Origin: Bacillales bacterium
GTDB lineage: Bacteria; Bacillota; Bacilli; JARBTR01
Reading direction: 5' to 3'
NCBI GenBank assembly: GCA_029240105.1
Contig: JARBTR010000004.1
Coordinates: 78,620-142,619, forward strand
Length of the DNA stretch: 64,000 nt
The notes under the pieces were generated by a model, which worked only from the letters and a program-made list of their open reading frames with translations, made no database searches and was not told where the DNA came from. A program made the translations under genes and the position numbers. Positions 1,265 to 33,721 of the stretch are shown piece by piece (the first letter of the stretch is position 1; every line of letters starts with the position of its first letter).

Positions 1265-1490
1265 CGCAAAAAAGTCCCTCTTAGTTAAAAGAGGGACGAA
1301 TTAGTAAATTAATCCGCGGTTCCACCCACGTTTCATGCACGGCTGCATGACGCTCAAAACAGGATAACGGTCGTAGCCGTCAGTTATTTCATCTGCATAT
1401 GCAAAATCCCTAACTGAAGTTCAAAGGTGGTAAATGTTCTGTTTGTTGAGAAGCTTTCACCGTTGCTTCTCTCTCTAAAAACAATTCCAG
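1265..1490 (-). promoter_or_regulatory. T-box leader (Thr specifier) of thrS
   Basis: On the minus strand: AGAGAG and GGTGAAAGC stem I elements (about 1476-1453), candidate specifier ACC followed by A (1431-1428), T-box sequence GGGTGGAACCGCGG (1327-1314), then a terminator hairpin. Confidence 0.8.
1268..1297 (-). terminator. T-box attenuator terminator
   Basis: gtccctctt (1274-1282) pairs with aagagggac (1289-1297): 9-bp stem, 6-nt loop, followed on the minus strand by U6 (1273-1268). Confidence 0.8.
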
Positions 1491-1652
1491 GAACATTCTT
1501 GTCCTTATCGATACTTTTTATCATTATAAACGATATTTTATCCATTGGTTCCTAAAAAATCAAGTTCGGTATGAAACTTTTTTTAAAAATGGACAAACTA
1601 CATTCCAGACAGACTAGATTCTCATTTTGATCTAAACTAAGGAGATAAAATA

Positions 1653-3372: not shown

Positions 3373-4149
3373 CTAATCTGAACGATTATTGATTCGATCC
3401 TTCTTTAAAAACAACCCAATACAAAGTAGTATCAGAACAAAAATGACGTTCGAATATATGGTCACCCATTGTTTTGATCCCATATTACCGTTTAAAACTC
3501 CTGTAGCATAGTCCGTTAGTTTCATTGGCAGATACTGATTCACTTTTTCAAACATGGTTAAAAACGCAAAACCAAAATAGAAAACAAATGAGCCAACCAT
3601 GCTCATTGTTGTACTTTTACTAAAATGAGAAATCACATTGATTAATACGATGAATACAAGCATGAAAAGATACAAACACATTAGTGAAAAAAAGCTGTGT
3701 TTTGGCATTTTATCAAATAAAACGATCGTATAAAAAACAAAGATAATCATTGAAACTAGGTAACTTAATGTAAAAACAATTACTTGTGAGCAAATATGAG
3801 ATAACAAAAATTCTTTTAATTTAACACCATTCATTTTTAATGTTGAATACGTACCTTTTACTTTCTCTCTTACGAGAATCGGTGAAAACATTGCAATTGT
3901 CACTAACAACACGATTTGCGTAATGTTTTTACTCAGTTGCGCAAATGCATCTATGTTAGTTGGTTTTGGGATTAAATTCGTAATCGCAGCATATTCTTCA
4001 CCCATCGATTTCAACAATTTCGGAGTGACTGCAGCTATTAATGGACTTTCCATCGCAAATAATGCCAACATGACTATCATAATGAGGAGCTTCTTTGACC
4101 GAATTAAGGCTGTTAAATCTTTTCTAAGTAAGATGAAAAAATTACTCAT
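3373..4149 (-). CDS. ABC-2 type transporter permease (YxlG-like)
   Basis: Six predicted TM segments. Overlaps the upstream ATPase gene by 8 nt (translational coupling). Confidence 0.6.
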   Translation of the reverse strand: MSNFFILLRKDLTALIRSKKLLIMIVMLALFAMESPLIAAVTPKLLKSMGEEYAAITNLIPKPTNIDAFAQLSKNITQIVLLVTIAMFSPILVREKVKGTYSTLKMNGVKLKEFLLSHICSQVIVFTLSYLVSMIIFVFYTIVLFDKMPKHSFFSLMCLYLFMLVFIVLINVISHFSKSTTMSMVGSFVFYFGFAFLTMFEKVNQYLPMKLTDYATGVLNGNMGSKQWVTIYSNVIFVLILLCIGLFLKKDRINNRSD

Positions 4150-5023
4150 TTTTCACACCTACCTCTTTTAAAAATATATCCTCAAGATTTATCTTTTTAA
4201 GATGTACGGATTCTACCATTAACCCTTTTTTATGCAAGATTTCAAAAACTTTATTTTGTGACTGGGTCAAATTCTTTGTCGTGATAGAGATGGTTTTTTC
4301 CTTAATTTCTAATGTTTCTTTCCACTCATCACTAAAAATCCGAAGTGTTTCAACATCATTGAACTCAATCACTAAAACACGATCATCCAATTGAATATCA
4401 CTTATCGACTTGTTCAGCAGAATGGACCCTTTATCAAGAAGAATGACATGATCACAAATTCGTTCGATATCACTCAAAATGTGTGAAGAAAAAATAATAC
4501 TCATTTTACCTTTTAGTTGACCTATTAAATCAAAAACCTCTTTTCTACCTATTGGGTCCAGTGCTGAGACTGGTTCGTCAAGGATTAGAACATCTGGTTT
4601 CATGATGATAGAAGAAGCAATTCCTAATCGTTGTCGTAAGCCCCTTGATAAACTCTTGATTCGCTTATTCAATTCTGCTTCAAGTCCAACCAATTTCACT
4701 GTCTCTTCAATTTTTGATTTTATATCACCCTTAAATTGATTTAATTCAAGGATAAATTTCAGGTACTCCTTCACTTGATAGAAGTCGTAAAATTCAGGCA
4801 CATCCTGCAGATAAATAATTCTCGTTTTGTTATCGTAGTGAATACGACCAGTGGTCTTTGGAATCAAATCCATGATGATCTTCATCGTTGTCGTTTTACC
4901 AGCTCCATTTGGGCCAAGAAGACCTACTACACTGCCAGCTTTTATTTCAAAAGAAACATTGTTCAATACACACACTGATTTATACATTTTTGTTAGGTTT
5001 TCAACTGATAAAATACTACTCAT
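4142..5023 (-). CDS. ABC transporter ATP-binding protein (YxlF-like)
   Basis: Walker A GPNGAGKTT, signature LSRGLRQR, Walker B ILDEP. Start taken at MSSILSVENL (ATG 5023), overlapping the end of the small upstream ORF. Confidence 0.9.
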   Translation of the reverse strand: MSSILSVENLTKMYKSVCVLNNVSFEIKAGSVVGLLGPNGAGKTTTMKIIMDLIPKTTGRIHYDNKTRIIYLQDVPEFYDFYQVKEYLKFILELNQFKGDIKSKIEETVKLVGLEAELNKRIKSLSRGLRQRLGIASSIIMKPDVLILDEPVSALDPIGRKEVFDLIGQLKGKMSIIFSSHILSDIERICDHVILLDKGSILLNKSISDIQLDDRVLVIEFNDVETLRIFSDEWKETLEIKEKTISITTKNLTQSQNKVFEILHKKGLMVESVHLKKINLEDIFLKEVGVKNE

Positions 5024-17942: not shown

Positions 17943-18875
17943 TCATGTCAAAACACAGATAACTTCTTTAACGCTTTTCGCTGATTTTTCAAGTGCAACT
18001 TTTTCCTCAGGCAATAGGTCTAGTTCAATAATTCGCTCAATTCCATTTACCCCAATTACAGTAGGGACACCTAAATAAAGATCATCAAAACCATATTCGC
18101 CTTCTAAATAAGCAGATGCAGGGAACACACGACGTTGATCTTTTAGTATCGCCTCAACGATTTCCAGTAACGCTGCTGACGGAGCATAATATGCGCTTCC
18201 ATTCCCTAAAAGATTAACAATTTCGCCACCACCTTTTCGAGTACGCTCAACAATGGCATCAATGCGATTCTTTGGTATTAGTTTTTCAATGGGGATCCCA
18301 CCAGCAAATGAATAACGAACTAATGGAACCATATCATCACCATGACCACCAAGAACAAATCCAGTAATATCCTTCACCGACATATTTATTTCTTGTGCAA
18401 TGAAAGTACGAAAACGGGCAGAGTCAAGAATACCTGACTGACCAAAAACACGATTTTTTGGGAAACCTGAATTTTTATAAACAGCAAAAGTCATTGCGTC
18501 AACTGGATTTGTCAATACGACAATGATACACTTCGGCGAATAGTGTACAACTTGCTTTGTAACTTCCTCAACAATTTTTTGGTTTGTTTGTATCAAGTCA
18601 TCTCGACTCATTCCAGGCTTTCGTGCAATTCCCGCTGTAATAATAACGACATGTGAATTGGCAGTATCCGAGAAATCACTTGTTCCACATACTTTAGAAT
18701 CTGATTGAAGAACAGGCATCGATTCTAAAATATCCAATGCCTTTCCCAATGTAGGATTTTCAAGGTCAGGAATATCCAACAGAACAACATCACATAATTC
18801 CTTTTGAGCAAGTAAAAATGCTGTTGTAGCTCCTGTATATCCCGCTCCTATAATAGAAATTTTTTTACGTATCAT
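17943..18875 (-). CDS. mdh: malate dehydrogenase (LDH-like MDH family)
   Basis: [14 protein letters not shown] Rossmann motif. [13 protein letters not shown] carries Arg at the substrate-specificity position. Confidence 0.9.
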
Positions 18876-19042
18876 TTTTCACCCCTATTCTTACAACTAA
18901 TTTAATATTTTATTTTATTTTTAGGACTATTATTATACCTTTACAAAGAATACAAACTAATTGTTTTCAAAATAATTCATTAAAATTACATCAGGTTTTC
19001 ATGAGGCTGTCATAATGACAATCCAAGGACATGTATATACTT

Positions 19043-19063
19043 AAAAAAAACCAGTAAACTGGT
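19043..19063 (-). terminator. weak terminator-like hairpin + U8 at the left end of foldback element copy 1
   Basis: ccagtaaactgg (19051-19062) followed on the minus strand by T8 (19050-19043). The stem is only 4-5 bp. Confidence 0.35.
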
Positions 19064-19512
19064 CTTTTTAAAACATTTGAGCAGATTTCTTGGATGAATT
19101 CCCGCAGAGCTTTCCTGTGGGTGAGCACCTGAGCCTAAGGTGATGGGAGTCGAACCCATAGGGTTTAAACGTTGTGATTTCACTGCTCTCGTTGTTCTCG
19201 TCGGGCGCAATATACTCGATATTACTTCCACCTCGGCCAAGATAGCAATGAAATCACTTTGATTAAACTCAAAGACCTTTTCTTGTTTCTTTCGAAGCAA
19301 GTCAAGGCAGAAGTGACGAAGCGTATCGAACATACGCTAGGAACCTCTAACACAGAATTGCAAAGATAGAAACAGGAAAAGGCCTATGGGTTCGACTCCC
19401 ATTACCTTAAGGTCTCAGGCACCCACTTTCCCACGGGAGTCCTGCGGGTTTCATTGCCAAAAAATCCATATTGTTCATCCTTCTAAAGCTTCTGGTAACA
19501 ATAGTTGAGGCC
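19051..19512. repeat. GC-rich foldback element, copy 1 (candidate ~465-nt ncRNA or MITE-like repeat)
   Basis: Aligns without gaps to 32245-32706 (37 differences in 462 positions, hand count). Internal inverted-repeat arms at 19087-19163 and 19383-19466. About 45% GC by hand count. Confidence 0.85.
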
Positions 19513-19518
19513 AAAAAA

Positions 19519-19547
19519 ATTATCATCCCTTAGAATTCGCTGTCTAA
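19519..19547 (-). promoter_or_regulatory. candidate sigma-A promoter reading into foldback element copy 1
   Basis: Minus strand reads TTAGAC (19547-19542), 17 nt, GATAAT (19524-19519). The -10 box ends 6 nt before the repeat boundary. Copy 2 has TATAAA at the equivalent place (32720-32715) but a poor -35. Confidence 0.3.
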
Positions 19548-19568: not shown

Positions 19569-20030
19569 CTATTTGAAATAATCCACAATTTGCATGGTCA
19601 AATAGGCAATTCCAGCACCGATAAGCGGGCCTACCGCTAACCCTTTAAACAGCGCTACAGCAATTATTGTTCCAAGAACAAGCGCCACTGTCATATCTGG
19701 ATTCACGGCCAAGAATTTAACACCACTCTTCCCGAGTAACGCGACTGCAATACCCGACAACATCCCTATCCAGGCATAAGGTGATTTCATTGAAATACCC
19801 AGGTGCTTAAAATTGATTTGACCTGTTGCAATTGGCATCAGAGCTGCAATTGTAATTATGGTAATTCCCCAATTAATGCCTTTCGACTGAATAGTATCCA
19901 AAATCTTTTGATCCACACGAACCCCTTTTAGAAAAATTAGAATCCCACTTGCGATCCAGAGAGATGGATTCTTCCCAAAAATCCCTATTAACAGCAGTAA
20001 TCCTAAAAATAAATACGGACTATTCCACAT
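19569..20030 (-). CDS. UPF0756/DUF441 membrane protein (YtwI-like)
   Basis: MWNSPYLFLGLLLLIGIFGK... with four TM segments. The internal ATG 20030 is preferred over the extended ORF-track start. Confidence 0.7.
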   Translation of the reverse strand: MWNSPYLFLGLLLLIGIFGKNPSLWIASGILIFLKGVRVDQKILDTIQSKGINWGITIITIAALMPIATGQINFKHLGISMKSPYAWIGMLSGIAVALLGKSGVKFLAVNPDMTVALVLGTIIAVALFKGLAVGPLIGAGIAYLTMQIVDYFK

Positions 20031-20179
20031 ACAAAAACCCCACAAAAACTTTTTTTTCAGAAATAACAATTCACTTATTATTAAATCACATGAATGGACG
20101 TAAAATTCGCCAAAATAATGATACAAACTACATTTTTTGCATTATAATGTTTAGAAACTATAGATAAAGAAGTGATTCA

Positions 20180-23989: not shown

Positions 23990-24061
23990 AACAAAAAACA
24001 TACTAAGATTAGCGGTGTAGAACTATGACGATAGTTCTACACCGCTAATCTTAGTATGTTT
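23990..24061 (-). terminator. 31-bp perfect palindromic hairpin, probable terminator of fxsA
   Basis: 23996-24026 pairs perfectly with 24031-24061 across the loop gacg. On the minus strand a U-run follows (tttttt g). Confidence 0.6.
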
Positions 24062-29047: not shown

Positions 29048-32000
29048 TCATTTTATTGAATGCAATTCCATAGATTCTTCGACAGTAAGTATCCTATTCG
29101 CAATAAACTGTAAGCGAGAATTTTTTTCTTCTACTTTGCCTTCGAATACAAATACTCCTCCTTTATCAATTCGATTTTCAATAGGTTGGAAGGCTCTCGG
29201 GAAGGCAACCGCTTCTATTTCGCCTGTTTCATCTCCAATGGATAGAAACGCCATCTTGTCTCCATTTTTTGTGCGAGTTGTTTTCATCCGATGTACATAT
29301 GCTCCACAAAGAACTTTTTTACCAACAAGTAAACTGGAAATTGGTGTAACTCCAAGAGTTTTCCATTCATTTTGATAAGATGAAACAGGATGTGCACTTA
29401 GATATATACCCAAATATTGTTTCTCTTTTTGGAGAATTTCTTCCATACTTAATTGTTCTGCTTCAGCGTAAGTAGCATTTACCTGAATCATTCCACCTAG
29501 TTCATTTAGACTTGCAGTTTCATATGCAATATCAATACTAGCTAAAATGACTGACCGATCAATTCCAAACTCATCAAAGCAGCCAGAGAATATAAGTGCC
29601 TCAAGCACTTTTTGATTCATTATTTTTTGAGGAAACCGAGCTACAAAATCAAAAAAATCTTTGAAATGTCCATTTTTTCTCTCTTTTATTATTTCCCTAA
29701 CAACAGCTCCACTGATAAATTTAATAGAAGATAATCCAAAACGAAGAGCATGTTCACCTTCCACACGGAATCCTTCTTTACTTTTATTTATAGAAGGACT
29801 TAGAATTTCTATTTCTTGAGCTCGTAGTTCTTGTATAAAGCTAGATATTTTATCTTCATTTCCAGCAAGATTTGTTATTAATTCAGCTATGAAAAATCTA
29901 GGATAATTTGCTTTTAAATAAGCCATCTGATAAGCAATCGTTGCATAGGCTACTGAATGACTTCGATTAAAACCATAGTTAGCAAATTTAACAATTAAAT
30001 CATAGACCTTATCTGCATCTTTTTTCGAGTAACCCTTATTTAGAGAACCCTTTACAAAATGAGTCCTTTCTTGATCTAAAACATCTTTTTTCTTTTTACT
30101 TACGGCTTTACGAAGTAAATCCGCTTCACCAAGAGTGAAGCCTGCCATCATTGATGCAATACGCATAATTTGTTCTTGGTAAACAATAATTCCATACGTA
30201 TTATTCAGAATTGGTTCCAAGTCTGGGTGAGGATAATCAACTTGTTCCTCTCCATGTTTTCGCTTTATAAAGGATGGTATGTTATCCATTGGACCTGGTC
30301 GAAATAGTGCATTCACTGCAATGATATCCTCAATACAAGTTGGTTTTAACTTTCGTATCACGTTTCGCATTCCATCTGATTCTAATTGAAAGACGCCCAC
30401 TGTATCCCCGCGACTAATTAATTCAAATGTTTTAATGTCGTCTAATGGAATTCGATTCAATACTAATTTTTGCTTTGTTATACGACTAATGTTTTGTAAG
30501 ACATTATCGAGAATTGTTAAGTTCCTAAGCCCCAAAAAGTCCATCTTAAGCAAGCCGATTTGCTCCAGTTGATCCATAGGGAACTGTGTTAGCAGAACAT
30601 TTTCGTGACCCTCTTGTATCGGTACAAGCTCTGTGATGGGTGTTCTTGACATGACAACTCCTGCTGCATGAACAGAAGTATGACGTGGTAACCCCTCCCA
30701 CTTAAAGGCAGTTTTTATAACTTTTTTATAAGTAGGGTTGTTCTTATATAAATCTTGGAGTTGTTTAGATGCTGTGAATGCATCTTTTAAGGTTGTACCA
30801 AGAGCAGATGGAATCATTTTTGATAGCTGATCTAATTCCGTAGTTGCCAATCCAAAAACACGTCCTGAATCACGAACTGCTGCCTTTGGTCCAAAAGTTC
30901 CAAAGGTGATAATTTGTGCAACGTGTAATTGACCGTATTTATTGGCTACATACTGAATCATTTCTTCACGGCGATGATCAGGAAAATCTATATCGATATC
31001 CGGCATAGAAATTCGTTCTGGATTTAAAAAGCGTTCAAAGAGAAGCCCATATGCAATTGGATCTATATTTGTTATACCAAGCACATAGGAAACAATAGAA
31101 CCTGCAGCGGAGCCTCGACCTGGACCAGTTAAAATCCCTTGTTTGCGAGCATAAGCCATAAAGTCCCAGACAATCAAAAAATAATCAGCGTAATTCATTT
31201 TCGAGATGATCGATAGTTCATACTCCAATCGCTTAAAATGGTCAGGTGTGGGATTGATATACCTATATTGAAAACCTTTTTGGCAATTTTCTCTTAAAAA
31301 TTCAGTAGCTGTTTTCCCTTCAGGTACTGGAAATTTAGGCAATAGTGTTTGCCCAAATTCCAGTTCAACTTGACAGCGTTCAGCAATATGAACACTATTT
31401 CTAACGGCCTCAGCTTCATTAGAAAAATGACATCTTAACTCCTCATCAGTTAAAAAGTGCATTCCATTAAATTCAACAAAATCAGCATGATCCATTGTTA
31501 AATCACTACCAAGACATTTTAAAGCTTCTAAATAAGTTCGATCTTCCTGTTCTAAAAATTGCACACAGCACCCAGCTACAAGAGGTGCACCAAGTTGTTT
31601 TAGTTGGGATTCGAAAACCTTTGCTGCTTCATTTTTGTGTAGAGAAAGATAAAAACGATTTTCCGTAAAAACAGATTGATACCTTTGAACCAAAGAGACT
31701 GCATCGGAAAATCGATTTCCACGCAAAGCTGTTTCTATTTCCCCATCCTGGCCTGGTGATAAAGCGAACAAGCCACTAGAATAACCTTTGAGCCAACGAA
31801 ACGGCAATCCATCCTTAGCCTTGGTTTGAAGTGCAGAAGATATTTTTATTAAATTTTGATAACCTTGACGGTTCATCGCCAAAAGTACCAATGGATAACT
31901 TGATTGTTCATTATCGCTTAAAATATCTGCAGTTAACCCAATAATCGGTTTAATATTTTGCTTTTTGCATGTCTGATAAAAGTGGACAGCACCATAAAGA

Positions 32001-32128
32001 ACATTGTGATCAGTCAAGGCTACTGCTTTATACCCTTTTTTAACTGCATTCGAAACAAGCGCATCAATAGATATCGTGCTATCAAGCAAACTATATGCAC
32101 TTCTAACTTGTAAATGTACAAACGACAA
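29048..32128 (-). CDS. dnaE: DNA polymerase III alpha subunit (DnaE type)
   Basis: N-terminal PHP domain MSFVHLQVRSAYSLLDS, polymerase core and C-terminal OB fold. 1026 aa. Confidence 0.95.
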   Translation of the reverse strand: MSFVHLQVRSAYSLLDSTISIDALVSNAVKKGYKAVALTDHNVLYGAVHFYQTCKKQNIKPIIGLTADILSDNEQSSYPLVLLAMNRQGYQNLIKISSALQTKAKDGLPFRWLKGYSSGLFALSPGQDGEIETALRGNRFSDAVSLVQRYQSVFTENRFYLSLHKNEAAKVFESQLKQLGAPLVAGCCVQFLEQEDRTYLEALKCLGSDLTMDHADFVEFNGMHFLTDEELRCHFSNEAEAVRNSVHIAERCQVELEFGQTLLPKFPVPEGKTATEFLRENCQKGFQYRYINPTPDHFKRLEYELSIISKMNYADYFLIVWDFMAYARKQGILTGPGRGSAAGSIVSYVLGITNIDPIAYGLLFERFLNPERISMPDIDIDFPDHRREEMIQYVANKYGQLHVAQIITFGTFGPKAAVRDSGRVFGLATTELDQLSKMIPSALGTTLKDAFTASKQLQDLYKNNPTYKKVIKTAFKWEGLPRHTSVHAAGVVMSRTPITELVPIQEGHENVLLTQFPMDQLEQIGLLKMDFLGLRNLTILDNVLQNISRITKQKLVLNRIPLDDIKTFELISRGDTVGVFQLESDGMRNVIRKLKPTCIEDIIAVNALFRPGPMDNIPSFIKRKHGEEQVDYPHPDLEPILNNTYGIIVYQEQIMRIASMMAGFTLGEADLLRKAVSKKKKDVLDQERTHFVKGSLNKGYSKKDADKVYDLIVKFANYGFNRSHSVAYATIAYQMAYLKANYPRFFIAELITNLAGNEDKISSFIQELRAQEIEILSPSINKSKEGFRVEGEHALRFGLSSIKFISGAVVREIIKERKNGHFKDFFDFVARFPQKIMNQKVLEALIFSGCFDEFGIDRSVILASIDIAYETASLNELGGMIQVNATYAEAEQLSMEEILQKEKQYLGIYLSAHPVSSYQNEWKTLGVTPISSLLVGKKVLCGAYVHRMKTTRTKNGDKMAFLSIGDETGEIEAVAFPRAFQPIENRIDKGGVFVFEGKVEEKNSRLQFIANRILTVEESMELHSIK

Positions 32129-32236
32129 CTAATCCACCTCCCCAAATAATTTTGAATTCTAATTTTATAAAAAAACAGCATACTTCAGTTTAATTTTTAG
32201 CTTTTTTCATATGTCGGTGACAAAATTACTAATTTT

Positions 32237-32257
32237 AAAAATAGCCAGCAAGCTGGT
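32237..32257 (-). terminator. weak terminator-like hairpin at the left end of foldback element copy 2
   Basis: ccagcaagctgg (32245-32256). The minus strand then reads ctattttt. Confidence 0.3.
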
Positions 32258-32706
32258 CCTTTTAAAACATTTGCGCGGATGTTTTGGATGAATTCCCGCA
32301 GAGCTTTCCTGTGGGTGAACGCCTGAGCCTAAGGTGTTGGGAGTCGAACCCTTAGGGTTTAATCGTTGTGATTTCACTGCTCTCGTTGTTCTCGTCGGGC
32401 GCAATATGATCGATATGACTTCCTCCTCGGCCTAGATAGCAATGAAATCACTTAAATTAAACTCGAAGACCTATTCTTGTTACTTTCGAAGCAAGGCAAG
32501 GCAGAAGTGACGAGGCGTATCGAACATACGCTAGGAACTTCTAACGCAGAATTGCAAATAAAGAAACAAGAAAAGGCCTATGGGTTCGACTCCCTTCACC
32601 TTAAGGTCTCAGGCACCCACTTTCACACGGGAGTCCTGCGGGTTTCATTGCCAAAACATCCATATTGTTCATCCTTCTAAAGCGTCTGGCACAAATAGTT
32701 GAGGCC
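32245..32706. repeat. GC-rich foldback element, copy 2
   Basis: Gapless match to 19051-19512 at a constant offset of 13194 nt (about 92% identity), in the same orientation. Confidence 0.85.
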
Positions 32707-32776
32707 CAAAAAAATTTATACTTTCTTATCTTTTTAAAAAAACCATTTGACCTAATACTTGTATCAGATCAACATG

Positions 32777-33721
32777 TTATTTACACGCATCAACTAAATC
32801 CTTAAGAAGTAACTTCGCTTCATCCCAGGAGGACACATTTGCACCTGATGCCAATGGATGCCCACCTCCGTTGTATTTTTCTGCGATTGTGTTAATAATC
32901 GTTCCTTTTGAACGTAAATTCACACGGATAGGCTTATCTTCAGTGAAGAACGCCCAAGCTTTAATTCCTTTTACGTTTCCAAGAATTGAAACTAAACGTG
33001 ACGCGTCTGACGAGGATACATTAAATTTTTCTTTAATTTCATTAGTAATAAAAATATTACCAACATTATTCTCAAGCGTCTCAAAATTTTCTAAAATATA
33101 TCCTTGAAGCTTGATCATATTCATAGGTTCTTCGTACATTTCAGTATGTAATTGATTTCGATCAAAATCATATTTGACAAGCTCACTAACAATCCGGAAA
33201 GTGTCACATGATGTGGACGGATATAAGAAATGGCCTGTATCACCAGCAATTCCTCCATATAAAAGTCGAGCAGCCTCTGGTGAACAAATGAATCCCATGT
33301 TTTTGCCAGCTTCAAAAAGTTCAAAAATCATTTCGCTGGTTGCACTTGCTTCAACATTTACCCAACAAATATCTCCATAAGCGTCATGATTCGGATGATG
33401 ATCAATTTTAATTAATTTTTCTGCTTTTACATAACGATTATCATCGATCCTTTCCTGATTTGCAGTGTCCGTCACTATTGCTAGTGCCCCATTCCATTCT
33501 TCATCCTCAATTTCATCAAGTTCATGCAAATAATTTAAAGCCAATGCTGGTGTTCCCACCATATAAATTTTCTTCTCCGGAAAGGAAGCCTTTAATATTT
33601 CCCCTAACCCACATTGAGATCCATATGCATCTAAATCAGGTCGAACATGTCGATGGATAATGATTTTTTCATAGCTCTTAATCATTTCAATAATATCTTT
33701 TTTTAAGGTTTCTGTTTTCAA
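32777..33721 (-). CDS. nrnA: bifunctional oligoribonuclease / pAp phosphatase (DHH-DHHA1)
   Basis: HVRPDLDAYGS, DHHPNH and GGGHPLASGA motifs. Confidence 0.85.
   Translation of the reverse strand: MKTETLKKDIIEMIKSYEKIIIHRHVRPDLDAYGSQCGLGEILKASFPEKKIYMVGTPALALNYLHELDEIEDEEWNGALAIVTDTANQERIDDNRYVKAEKLIKIDHHPNHDAYGDICWVNVEASATSEMIFELFEAGKNMGFICSPEAARLLYGGIAGDTGHFLYPSTSCDTFRIVSELVKYDFDRNQLHTEMYEEPMNMIKLQGYILENFETLENNVGNIFITNEIKEKFNVSSSDASRLVSILGNVKGIKAWAFFTEDKPIRVNLRSKGTIINTIAEKYNGGGHPLASGANVSSWDEAKLLLKDLVDACK

Follow-up and report, generated by a model that had tools for sequence, protein, structure and literature searches.

A 485-nt non-coding repeat found twice in 64 kb of a Bacillales genome carries a core from a dispersed family with a conserved three-way-junction fold

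The spacer between nrnA and dnaE in a 64,000-nt stretch of DNA from a Bacillales bacterium (hereafter the window) contains a sequence that recurs between a DUF441 gene and mdh. One important question is whether the two copies represent a functional RNA helix or a selfish MITE, the alternatives considered in an earlier note on this DNA. The tests described below mostly favoured a mobile repeat, and on the side of the helix they revealed a fold that is conserved, by covariation, throughout a family of related elements.

The two copies and their gene context

Machine comparison of the two regions (constant-offset count, MAFFT alignment and a repeat finder, repeat D1) reproduced the match that had been counted by hand. 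Window positions 19051-19512 and 32245-32706 align at a constant offset of 13194 over 462 nt, with 37 substitutions (16 transitions and 21 transversions), no indels and 92.0% identity. The similarity had been reported to stop in the A-rich flanks; it is indeed random beyond the repeat, where the flanks are A/T-rich, but it reaches slightly further than had been noted. The full repeat unit measures 485 nt and is gapless with 44 substitutions, identity being random outside these limits. The units have a GC content of 43-45% (43% in copy 1), compared with 24-26% in the adjoining spacer DNA. The units and their neighbouring genes are as follows.

19041-19525, unstranded: repeat unit copy 1, 485 nt, in the DUF441 gene/mdh spacer (gapless match to 32235-32719)
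32235-32719, unstranded: repeat unit copy 2, 485 nt, in the nrnA/dnaE spacer (same evidence)
19569-20126, minus strand: DUF441 (ytwI-like) gene, followed by copy 1 (Pfam hit)
17943-18875, minus strand: mdh, beyond copy 1 (Pfam hit)
32777-33721, minus strand: nrnA, followed by copy 2 (Pfam hit)
29048-32128, minus strand: dnaE, beyond copy 2 (Pfam hit)

The gene context given in the earlier note was confirmed, with all four neighbours on the minus strand. The upstream genes, DUF441 and nrnA, lack a terminator of their own, and the 485-nt composite begins 43-57 nt past them and ends 106-165 nt ahead of mdh and dnaE. Both copies, 13 kb apart, lie behind these genes in the same orientation and at similar positions relative to them, which might equally reflect a host function; this was counted against a mobile origin.

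The open reading frames predicted inside the units are not maintained, as had been stated: in copy 2 the minus-strand ORF that spans 107 aa in copy 1 is interrupted by a stop at codon 16, and the plus-strand ORF at 32477-32680 meets a stop in copy 1. No homologue of the 107-aa product was detected among 5.8 billion proteins except the protein itself, and this protein search found no other copies of the composite. With the frame interrupted in copy 2 and no match beyond the protein itself, a protein-coding reading was dropped. No conserved internal promoter was found in the window copies or in the alignment of the family described below, and a promoter scan remained at background level; a TTGACA motif in one hairpin was rejected as a promoter, since no -10 box stands at the right spacing. 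The 485-nt units are non-coding repeat DNA and not genes. They should be annotated as such, rather than as genes, riboswitches or regulators of mdh or dnaE, and their predicted ORFs should be removed.

Anatomy of the unit and membership of a dispersed family

Each unit consists of an outer stem of ~58 bp enclosing a 274-nt core, which has the form TAAGGnnnn-GGGAGTCGAACCC at its 5' end and GGGTTCGACTCCC-nnnnCCTTA at its 3' end; GGGAGTCGAACCC is the reverse complement of the T-arm-like box GGGTTCGACTCCC. The parts were mapped as listed here.

19136-19409, unstranded: core of copy 1, TAAGGTGAT...ATTACCTTA, member of a ~279-nt TA-bounded family (model R2)
32330-32603, unstranded: core of copy 2 (model R2)
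19145-19157, plus strand: 13-nt box GGGAGTCGAACCC, left arm of copy 1 (sequence; inverted repeat I5)
19388-19400, plus strand: 13-nt box GGGTTCGACTCCC, right arm of copy 1 (sequence)
32339-32351, plus strand: 13-nt box GGGAGTCGAACCC, copy 2 (inverted repeat I7)
32582-32594, plus strand: 13-nt box GGGTTCGACTCCC, copy 2 (inverted repeat I7)
19162-19269 (copy 2, 32356-32463), unstranded: first internal hairpin of the three-way junction (MFE folds, consensus structure, column mapping)
19276-19381 (copy 2, 32470-32575), unstranded: second internal hairpin of the three-way junction (MFE folds, consensus structure, column mapping)
19078-19135 (copy 2, 32272-32329), unstranded: left arm of the outer stem (pairs with ~19410-19469 in the folds of both strands)
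19410-19469 (copy 2, 32604-32663), unstranded: right arm of the outer stem (folds of both strands)
19041-19068 (copy 2, 32235-32262, with a weaker stem), minus strand: short terminator-like hairpin at the mdh-proximal end (terminator scan)
19470-19502 (copy 2, 32664-32696), unstranded: small hairpin ATTGTT...AACAAT at the end facing the upstream gene (minus-strand fold)

The predicted fold is far more stable than that of dinucleotide shuffles (z = -11.4 for the plus strand and -10.6 for the minus strand), the minus (gene) strand reaching -203.5 kcal/mol and the other strand -193.2 kcal/mol. The terminator-like hairpin reads AAAAAGACCAG-TTTA-CTGGTTTTTTTT on the minus strand. In copy 1 its 5-bp stem, at 19050-19063, passes the terminator scan and the copy 2 version fails; the hairpin at 19041-19068 is a putative terminator. 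No terminal inverted repeats delimit the composite itself, and a search for sequences similar to the outer-stem arms found none in the rest of the window or among the fetched loci of the family; judging from these sequences, the outer stem appears to be specific to the source genome. Both features were counted against a mobile reading of the composite as a whole.

When the substitutions were placed on this fold, the arm changes proved to be as described: copy 2 carries three T-T mismatches beside the 13-bp box and one upgrade from G-T to G-C. A double change at the left end (ccagTaaActgg/ccagCaaGctgg), which had been taken to keep complementarity, did not hold up, since it sits in the loop of a 4-5 bp hairpin and shows no clear compensatory pair. 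The paired positions took 24 of the 44 substitutions, somewhat fewer than expected from the 70% of positions that are paired, and some weak constraint on the copies may therefore remain. Of the 23 pairs touched by substitutions between copy 1 and copy 2, 17 are broken and one is compensatory, which indicates that the local copies are drifting.

The core is not confined to the window. A covariance model (R2) built without the window sequences detected the core of copy 1 with 125 bits (E about 1e-36) on the minus strand and 98.5 bits on the plus strand, and that of copy 2 with 121.6 and 86.7 bits, respectively; a sequence-only nhmmer profile detected the ends of the window cores but not their interior. 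Elsewhere the element measures ~279 nt, has TA at each boundary and the ends TAAGGnnnnGGGAGTCGAACCC, and occurs in many Clostridia genome bins. One genome scan yielded 21 copies in Clostridia bins, which correspond to 20 distinct sites, and many further copies lie in metagenome contigs. Within a bin, copies share 95-99% identity, against the random level (about 45-50%) in their flanks, and two loci from different bins (L013 and L026) carry 100% identical elements in unrelated flanks. Sizes range from 165 to 500 nt, with shortened, expanded and tandem forms; one locus (L058) contains two tandem elements with one TA in common. Decay products were also observed, namely 165-219-nt forms without part of a hairpin, solo end-hairpins of 32-50 nt and truncated ends. 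The copies lie in either orientation, in divergent, convergent and co-directional spacers, and among the co-directional neighbours 12 were oriented one way and 7 the other, which is not significant.

The window cores thus belong to a widespread family that is absent from Rfam. At the gathering cut-off of Rfam 15 the element had no match in the whole window or in 12 Clostridia loci, and membership in OLE, ROOL, GOLLD, raiA, HEARO, 6S, Y RNA and the other Rfam families was rejected on these grounds. Permissive Rfam scans, run on one copy from the window and one from Clostridia, gave chance-level hits only. The hits that did pass the gathering cut-off were a T-box leader at window positions 1289-1520, outside the element, and two ordinary tRNA genes among the 12 Clostridia loci. 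In the literature searched, which included one 26-genome ncRNA survey, the family was not described. No match was obtained by blastn of the window unit against plasmids and phages or of a Clostridia copy against plasmids; a pattern scan of IMG/VR gave three hits, and the one inspected was unrelated.

Membership of this family bears on a further explanation of the window copies, namely that a single ancestral spacer gave rise to both by local duplication or gene conversion and that the element is immobile in the source genome. The count of two 485-nt composites, made within the 64-kb window, was also counted against mobility and agrees with such an origin, as do their closeness and common orientation, the lack of terminal inverted repeats of the composite and its unique outer arms. 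Nevertheless, homology ends sharply on both sides in unrelated spacers, the core comes from a clearly dispersed family, and a Logan contig carrying an identical nrnA breaks at the element, as contigs do at repeats. We regard local duplication as very improbable.

Conserved fold and tRNA-like ends

Covariation within the family supported a three-way junction in which 64 of the 78 pairs have changed on both sides. In the alignment 90.9% of the cells pair, compared with 38-48% when the partners were slid, and 0 of 500 shuffles reached the observed values; inclusion of the window copies left this result unchanged. The junction is closed by a terminal helix of ~25 bp (96.7% of cells paired) and carries two hairpins of about 110 nt each. 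From the tip inwards the terminal helix comprises 7-9 covarying pairs, the near-invariant 13-bp box GGGAGTCGAACCC/GGGTTCGACTCCC and 3-5 more covarying pairs. The box is near-invariant in the family also at the end that had been left free by the search pattern.

The 13-mer GGGTTCGACTCCC is a bacterial tRNA T-arm sequence that matches the T-loop/T-stem consensus, and it was also found in genuine tRNA genes, which appeared as false positives of the genome scan. The geometry of the arm, with 7 + 5 nt ahead of the loop, fits a 7-bp acceptor-like stem plus a T-stem. All 5 bp of the T-stem form in 14 of the 30 right arms and in 8 of the 30 left arms, the others lacking the two outer pairs, and covariation backs arm-to-arm pairing rather than an acceptor/T-stem arrangement. 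ARAGORN detected no tRNA or tmRNA in the window. In Rfam the T-arm part of tmRNA scored 13.5-16.6 bits against a cut-off of 47 and a Y RNA 19.6 against 80. The candidate tRNA or tmRNA gene was discarded on the ARAGORN result and the tmRNA score.

Pairs in the family are overwhelmingly Watson-Crick, with G-U in 3.9% of cells. One strand had been singled out from a 137:49 bias of G-U over A-C and from an 'invariant G-U'. This reading was rejected because that G pairs with C in the window-free structure, because the bias runs in opposite directions in the two internal hairpins, and because in the window cores the window-free model favours the strand opposite to that used in earlier alignments.

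These data allow the structured-RNA explanation to be weighed. It supposes an RNA used by the host, either a gene or a cis-acting part, whose many copies reflect the spread of a gene family. As a 3'-UTR module it could end transcription behind DUF441 and nrnA or hold off 3' exonucleases there; as a tRNA-like RNA it could be a substrate of tRNA enzymes such as RNase P, TruB, TrmA or the CCA-adding enzyme. The very strong covariation in all helices speaks for such an RNA, together with the extreme folds (z about -11), the slightly better fold and higher R2 score of the minus (gene) strand, and the position behind terminator-less genes in one orientation with a terminator-like hairpin at the end. 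The tRNA-like variant draws on the T-arm 13-mer, on ends readable as a 7-bp acceptor-like stem plus T-arm and on the sub-threshold Rfam hits to tRNA-like parts. However, the T-stem counts and the ARAGORN result argue against a tRNA-like RNA, and the terminator-like stem, of 4-5 pairs and failing the scan in copy 2, argues against a terminator module. Pair-breaking changes accumulate in the local copies, the family is mixed in its orientation to genes and occupies all spacer types, no internal promoter is conserved, and the rarity of G-U and the reversal of its bias between hairpins do not suit a conserved RNA strand. In addition, the spacer of the nearest relatives lacks the element (see below). 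An RNA that the host uses is in our view unlikely.

Insertion sites and mode of spread

An orthologous dnaE upstream spacer free of the element, which had been raised as a mark of insertion, was found in the two nearest relatives (NrnA 87% and 81% identical). The nrnA-dnaE spacer measures 648 nt here, compared with 261 and 141 nt in these relatives; the relatives' spacers are too diverged to align with it, are free of the element and fold in an ordinary manner (z = -1.2). Several features of a MITE were thus observed: terminal inverted repeats of the core, dispersed small copies without coding capacity and presence or absence at the orthologous nrnA-dnaE site. Among the fetched loci no empty site spans the junction cleanly, and three of them (L086, L087 and L090) have only the left flank in common.

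The flanks of the family copies follow the pattern (C)T|TAAGG...CCTTA|A(G), without any longer direct repeat, and nearly all copies have TA at both ends. Of 43 family copies from other genomes, 10 have a terminal TAA that is also the exact stop of an ORF of 190-480 codons, and such ORFs enter from either side. Since TA is palindromic and forms part of the inverted repeat, we only infer that it is duplicated.

We consider it fairly probable that each locus holds a copy of a mobile repeat that is non-coding and non-autonomous and depends on a folded single strand for its spread. Such a repeat would insert at TA, often within (C)TTAA(G) and often at the TA of a TAA or TAG stop codon, and the presumed duplicated TA together with the first A of the element would rebuild the stop codon. 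On the folded single strand the mobilising enzyme would recognise the boxed helix and would cut and join at the flanking TA. Lineages in which spreading continues would retain the fold, and individual inserted copies would decay. In the source genome the 485-nt composite, that is, the core with its ~58-bp outer stem and the terminator-like hairpin, would have been placed twice. Transcripts of the upstream gene probably extend through the element, which would form a bulky structure at their 3' end and may affect them, and there is no sign that the host needs the element.

The insertion data might also be explained by an ordinary double-stranded cut-and-paste MITE, moved by a transposase of the IS630/Tc1/mariner type, which is known as the main IS family of bacteria to duplicate TA. 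The transposase would then bind the 13-bp box in the terminal inverted repeat, and the internal hairpins would matter only after transcription, or never. The TA at both ends, the CTTAAG-like flanks and the tandem pair with one common TA fit this explanation, as do the inverted ends with a conserved inner box and a TAAGG tip, the orientation-free insertion and the dominance of Watson-Crick pairs with few G-U, as expected for constraint at the DNA level. Yet perfect covariation between the two ends is seen at the four variable bases that separate TAAGG from the box and at the 3-5 bases inside the box, and both internal hairpins covary along their whole length. Neither would be expected if a transposase read each end on its own. 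Covariation of this strength in the internal hairpins is not expected for a plain cut-and-paste MITE and was also counted against the mobile reading. Furthermore, no IS630-like gene between these ends was found in about 0.5 Mb of fetched loci, nor was a parent IS, sought as ends 0.6-4 kb apart around a transposase, or any other partner gene with the same ends, and this too was counted against the mobile reading. The only such pair of ends (locus L008) was rejected as a parent IS, since it consists of a duplicated flank and a solo end with two small HTH genes and no transposase. Simple cut-and-paste transposition is thus a doubtful explanation.

For the mobile repeat spreading through a folded single strand, comparison with known systems found partial likenesses. 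Correia elements of Neisseria and RUP of Streptococcus pneumoniae are TA-duplicating MITEs of 100-160 bp that form simple hairpins and have a known parent IS. The element described here resembles them in its TA ends, terminal inverted repeats, intergenic or gene-end sites and probable co-transcription with neighbours, but differs in its three-way junction that covaries over the whole body and in having no known parent IS. The attC sites of integrons are folded single-stranded recombination sites, 57-141 nt long, in which structure is conserved over sequence; they often lie at the preceding stop codon, and they stand in cassette arrays beside the integrase. We know of no integrons reported from Firmicutes. 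Structure-over-sequence conservation, stop-codon location and, presumably, recombination as a folded single strand are common to both, whereas the elements here are scattered next to housekeeping genes. With the tRNA-like domains of tmRNA and YrlA the element shares the canonical T-arm 13-mer GGGTTCGACTCCC and weak Rfam hits, but it has no CCA end, its T-stem is incomplete in about half of the copies, and its box is carried by both strands and is self-pairing.

REPINs are roughly 100 nt long, have no three-way junction, occur mainly in Proteobacteria and need a single-copy RAYT gene. These RAYT-moved elements consist of two inverted copies of a short motif around a spacer, with a single-strand hairpin under selection (Bertels and Rainey 2011, PMC3116915), and carry GTAG or CGTC tags next to the palindrome (PMC3733652). 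Both they and the present element are non-autonomous, place an inverted short conserved motif around a spacer and fold as a single strand. Assignment to REPIN/RAYT was rejected, as the ends read TAAGG...CCTTA and the box GGGAGTCGAACCC, without GTAG or CGTC. In Bacillales, the bcr1/group-A bcr repeats are small non-coding dispersed repeats whose location varies among related strains (Delihas 2011, PMC3184786). The same account describes bcr1 as about 155 bp long, with 5-bp direct repeats and confined to the B. cereus group, and, citing Okstad 2004, Klevan 2007 and Kristoffersen 2011, as transcribed and with a predicted branched fold that is kept by compensatory changes and whose stability is lost in many copies (PMC3184786). 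The element studied here is likewise a small non-coding dispersed repeat of Bacillales with a branched fold and compensatory changes; going by that published description of bcr, it is set apart by its 274-279-nt core, TA ends, T-arm-like 13-bp box and occurrence mainly in Clostridia.

We put forward only as a speculation, and an unlikely one, that the family represents an undescribed class of mobile element in Clostridia and Bacillales, with a ~280-nt three-way-junction body and a T-arm sequence on both strands of its closing helix, that spreads via folded single-stranded DNA or RNA and leaves genes intact by targeting the TA of their stop codons. The folded intermediate would be recognised by an enzyme so far without a link to transposition; candidates would be host enzymes that recognise tRNA, recombinases of the HUH or tyrosine type, and reverse transcriptases. 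Identification of the mover of the family could uncover a new gene-sparing form of spread for small DNA or show tRNA mimicry in a new role.

The family is common in gut and rumen Clostridia, and its covariation is of Rfam grade although it is absent from Rfam 15. Many contigs end inside the element, which indicates that the family breaks metagenome assemblies, and a model of it would therefore be of use in both assembly and annotation.

The repeat pair upstream of mdh and dnaE

The two look-alike stretches upstream of mdh (copy 1) and dnaE (copy 2) are copies of one non-coding repeat that is probably mobile and selfish, and they are not regulators of either gene. An earlier hand count had given a gapless match of 462 nt with 37 substitutions. 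Machine comparison (MAFFT and a repeat finder) reproduced it exactly: 19051-19512 aligns with 32245-32706 at an offset that stays at 13194 nt throughout, and the two differ by 37 substitutions without any indel (92.0% identity). The repeat pair was confirmed as a whole. The full repeat unit covers 485 nt with 44 substitutions between the copies, and beyond these limits the identity of the copies is at the random level. The units have a G+C content of 43–45% and the surrounding spacer DNA one of 24–26%. All four neighbouring genes lie on the minus strand, in the order DUF441 (ytwI-like), copy 1, mdh and nrnA, copy 2, dnaE; the distance from the upstream stop codon to the unit is 43–57 nt, and from the unit to the downstream start 106–165 nt. 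As the earlier note stated, copy 2 has a stop at codon 16 of the 107-aa minus-strand ORF of copy 1, and the plus-strand ORF of copy 2 meets a stop in copy 1. The sole match of the 107-aa product among 5.8 billion proteins was itself.

Features of the repeat units
19041-19525: repeat unit copy 1, 485 nt, between DUF441 (ytwI-like) and mdh
32235-32719: repeat unit copy 2, 485 nt, between nrnA and dnaE
19136-19409: core of copy 1, 274 nt
32330-32603: core of copy 2, 274 nt
19078-19135, paired with about 19410-19469: outer stem of copy 1, ~58 bp
mdh/dnaE-proximal end, minus strand reading: end hairpin AAAAAGACCAG-TTTA-CTGGTTTTTTTT, detected by the scan in copy 1 only

Each 485-nt unit is built of three layers, namely small end hairpins, an outer stem and the core, and folds with energies of -193 and -205 kcal/mol on the two strands (z = -11.4 and -10.6 against shuffled sequence). 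From its sequence, the mdh/dnaE-proximal end hairpin looks like a weak two-way terminator. The core starts with TAAGGTGAT-GGGAGTCGAACCC and ends with GGGTTCGACTCCC-ATTACCTTA, and these paired ends close a three-way junction that holds two hairpins of ~105 nt. The sequence GGGTTCGACTCCC is that of a canonical tRNA T-arm. About half of the arms have a full T-stem. ARAGORN found no tRNA anywhere in the window and no Rfam family was found at either unit, even at E = 10. The element did not pass as a tRNA-like RNA in formal tests, with no call by ARAGORN, Rfam tmRNA and Y RNA scores far under the cut-offs and the T-stem incomplete in the remaining arms.

A family of TA-bounded elements

For each GTDB species, one genome was scanned for the two 13-mers at a spacing of 215–245 nt, which returned 28 loci. 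Six were divergent tRNA gene pairs and one was an unrelated palindrome in a Zoogloeaceae bin. The other 21 (20 distinct sites, one locus being present in two bins as L014 and L016) were units of ~279 nt, 9-nt terminal stems counted, in Clostridia, Clostridiales and Oscillospiraceae bins, and all had the form TAAGGnnnn-box...box-nnnnCCTTA, the box being the 13-nt motif at each core end. Several bins contained more than one copy, the unit interior was found in both orientations, and many further copies came from a metagenome scan using one end alone. No Rfam family was matched by these elements and literature searches found no published description of them; as far as can be told, the widespread structured family of the core is undescribed to date.

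In order to avoid circularity, a covariance model (R2) was built from 28 non-window copies (alignment A6). Over the 64 kb it matched the two window cores and nothing else. The core of copy 1 scored 125 bits on the minus strand and 98.5 on the plus strand, that of copy 2 121.6 and 86.7 bits; alignments A2 and A4 had taken the cores on the plus strand. Because this model, built without the window copies, finds both cores, their membership of the family is solid. A sequence-only profile detects just their ends; the core interior is related to the family by structure and not by recognisable sequence.

The family has the behaviour of mobile DNA. Within a bin, copies are 94.6–99.3% identical and their flanks are at random identity (42.6–52.6%), and two elements from different bins (L013 and L026) are 100% identical with unrelated flanks. 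Two elements in L058 (183-456 and 455-732) belong to different subtypes and abut, with one TA common to both; the box of one is a variant, GAGGCATCTCCGAAC... Many contigs end within the element. One contig with a 100% identical NrnA (L029, Logan SRR35179801) ends 73 nt past the gene, at the element edge, the kind of assembly break that a repeat is expected to cause. Short derivatives of 165–219 nt lacking most of one hairpin, truncated ends and 'solo' end-hairpins of 32–50 nt are also present, together with long derivatives of 338 nt and 500 nt that carry additional small hairpins.

The flank consensus is (C)T/TAAGG...CCTTA/A(G), with no longer direct repeat. It fits insertion at TA, often within CTTAAG, with a duplication of the TA that we infer only, because TA is a palindrome. 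In 10 of 43 elements the terminal TAA is at the same time the stop codon of an ORF of 190–480 codons, which reads in from one side in four and from the other in six; the insertion site of such elements would have been the TA of a stop codon (TAA or TAG), the first A of the element rebuilding the stop. Between co-directional genes the two orientations number 12 and 7, with six elements between divergent and two between convergent genes, and the elements are independent of the direction of host transcription. The search for a partner gene gave nothing: pairs of ends 0.6–4 kb apart in the ~0.5 Mb of fetched loci enclose no transposase. The interest of the family would rise sharply if the mobilising mechanism uses the folded strand or the tRNA-like box.

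A full 279-nt element (L086 90-368) and two end-only hairpins of 49–50 nt (L087 430-479 and L090 101-149) have a common left flank; their right flanks differ, so that they form no clean filled/empty pair. In L008, the left element end is duplicated 1.4 kb upstream together with ~120 nt of left flank (about 3400-3522 and 4790-4911), with two small helix-turn-helix ORFs between the two copies; the duplicated flank may be a second repeat family.

With regard to the composite 485-nt unit, its outer stem and end hairpins had no match elsewhere in the window or in the ~0.5 Mb of fetched loci, and its own termini carry no inverted repeats. One possible origin is an older hairpin into whose loop the core inserted, the whole being copied afterwards; the other is that the composite represents a long form of the family peculiar to this genome. 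These two origins were weighed on the two copies of the 64-kb window only. Expanded members of the family (L034 891-1390, 500 nt, and L048 940-1277, 338 nt, from metagenome JGI994J12354), with extra small hairpins inside the arms, show that its scaffold tolerates additions.

The spacers of related species, to which the earlier note had pointed, were compared in the nearest available relatives of the source (uncultured Bacillales; 612-kb contig of JGI metagenome 3300042923), with NrnA 87% and 81% identical. Both keep the gene order ytoI-nrnA-dnaE-malic enzyme-pfkA, and the nrnA-dnaE spacer measures 261 and 141 nt in them vs 648 nt in the window. The element is absent from these spacers, which gave no match to the family covariance model R1, have an ordinary fold (z = -1.2) and are too diverged for exact insertion boundaries to be read. 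On this sequence comparison, the window copies appear to be insertions.

Conservation of the fold

Covariation was tested on a MAFFT alignment of the 28 non-window copies, fitted to no structure. Standard pairs occupied 90.9% of cells, compared with 38–48% when the partners were slid by 1–3 columns, and both-sided changes were found in 64 of 78 pairs. The covariation score was 0.549 (slid controls, 0.09–0.13), none of 500 shuffles reached the observed fold values, and adding the window copies gave the same picture. The family fold is conserved by selection. Covariation extends over the four variable bases between TAAGG and the box, the 3–5 pairs next to the box on its inner side and the two internal hairpins. 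The box itself hardly varies; a minority of copies depart from it at the end left free by the search pattern, with uncompensated changes. G-U pairs occur in only 3.9% of cells and A-C oppositions in 2.0%, and the bias between the two points to one strand in one hairpin (53:12) and to the opposite strand in the second (8:20). One apparently invariant G-U noted at first proved to be a G-C pair in the window-free structure. Because pairing is mostly Watson-Crick and there is no orientation bias, the evidence leans towards a fold at the DNA level or of either strand.

Between the window copies, 24 of the 44 substitutions fall at paired positions, which make up 70% of all positions. They touch 23 pairs, and the T-T mismatches that had been read beside the box in copy 2 are indeed there. 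Selection on the fold acts on spreading lineages and not visibly on the resident window copies, which are drifting, because 17 of the 23 touched pairs are broken and only one is compensated.

Known systems and other structured sequences

By its type, the element most resembles three sorts of structured non-autonomous repeat: bcr1, REPINs and TA-duplicating IS630-type MITEs. bcr1 of the B. cereus group is mobile and transcribed, with a branched fold kept by compensatory changes and lost in many copies (PMC3184786). REPINs are described as two inverted motifs forming a hairpin kept by selection and moved by RAYT (PMC3116915). The element differs from all three in size and by its three-way junction, which covaries throughout. 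It is further set apart by the T-arm box on both strands, the stop-codon sites and the range over Clostridia and Bacillales, bcr repeats being compared by their published description.

The Zoogloeaceae palindrome (L018 1129-1392, JAIRZG010000036.1) is a near-perfect palindrome of 264 nt with the 13-mer pair GGGAGTCGAACCC...GGGTTCGACTCCC, without TAAGG ends or tRNA and with an interior different from the family; it may represent a distant relative, or a convergent one, from the Betaproteobacteria. L064 and L088 contain a G+C-rich, apparently structured stretch ~80–330 nt upstream of the pattern match, before a single T-arm-like end; this stretch belongs neither to a tRNA nor to the family. Within the window, the only Rfam family found was a T-box leader on the minus strand (1289-1520), which scored 106.6 bits (gathering cut-off, 93) and covered the full model. 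At 23996-24061, flanked by two minus-strand ORFs, lies an inverted repeat, AAACATACTAAGATTAGCGGTGTAGAACTAT / ATAGTTCTACACCGCTAATCTTAGTATGTTT, whose arms match perfectly over 31 bp across a gap of 4 nt; its length and A/T-richness are unusual for a terminator.
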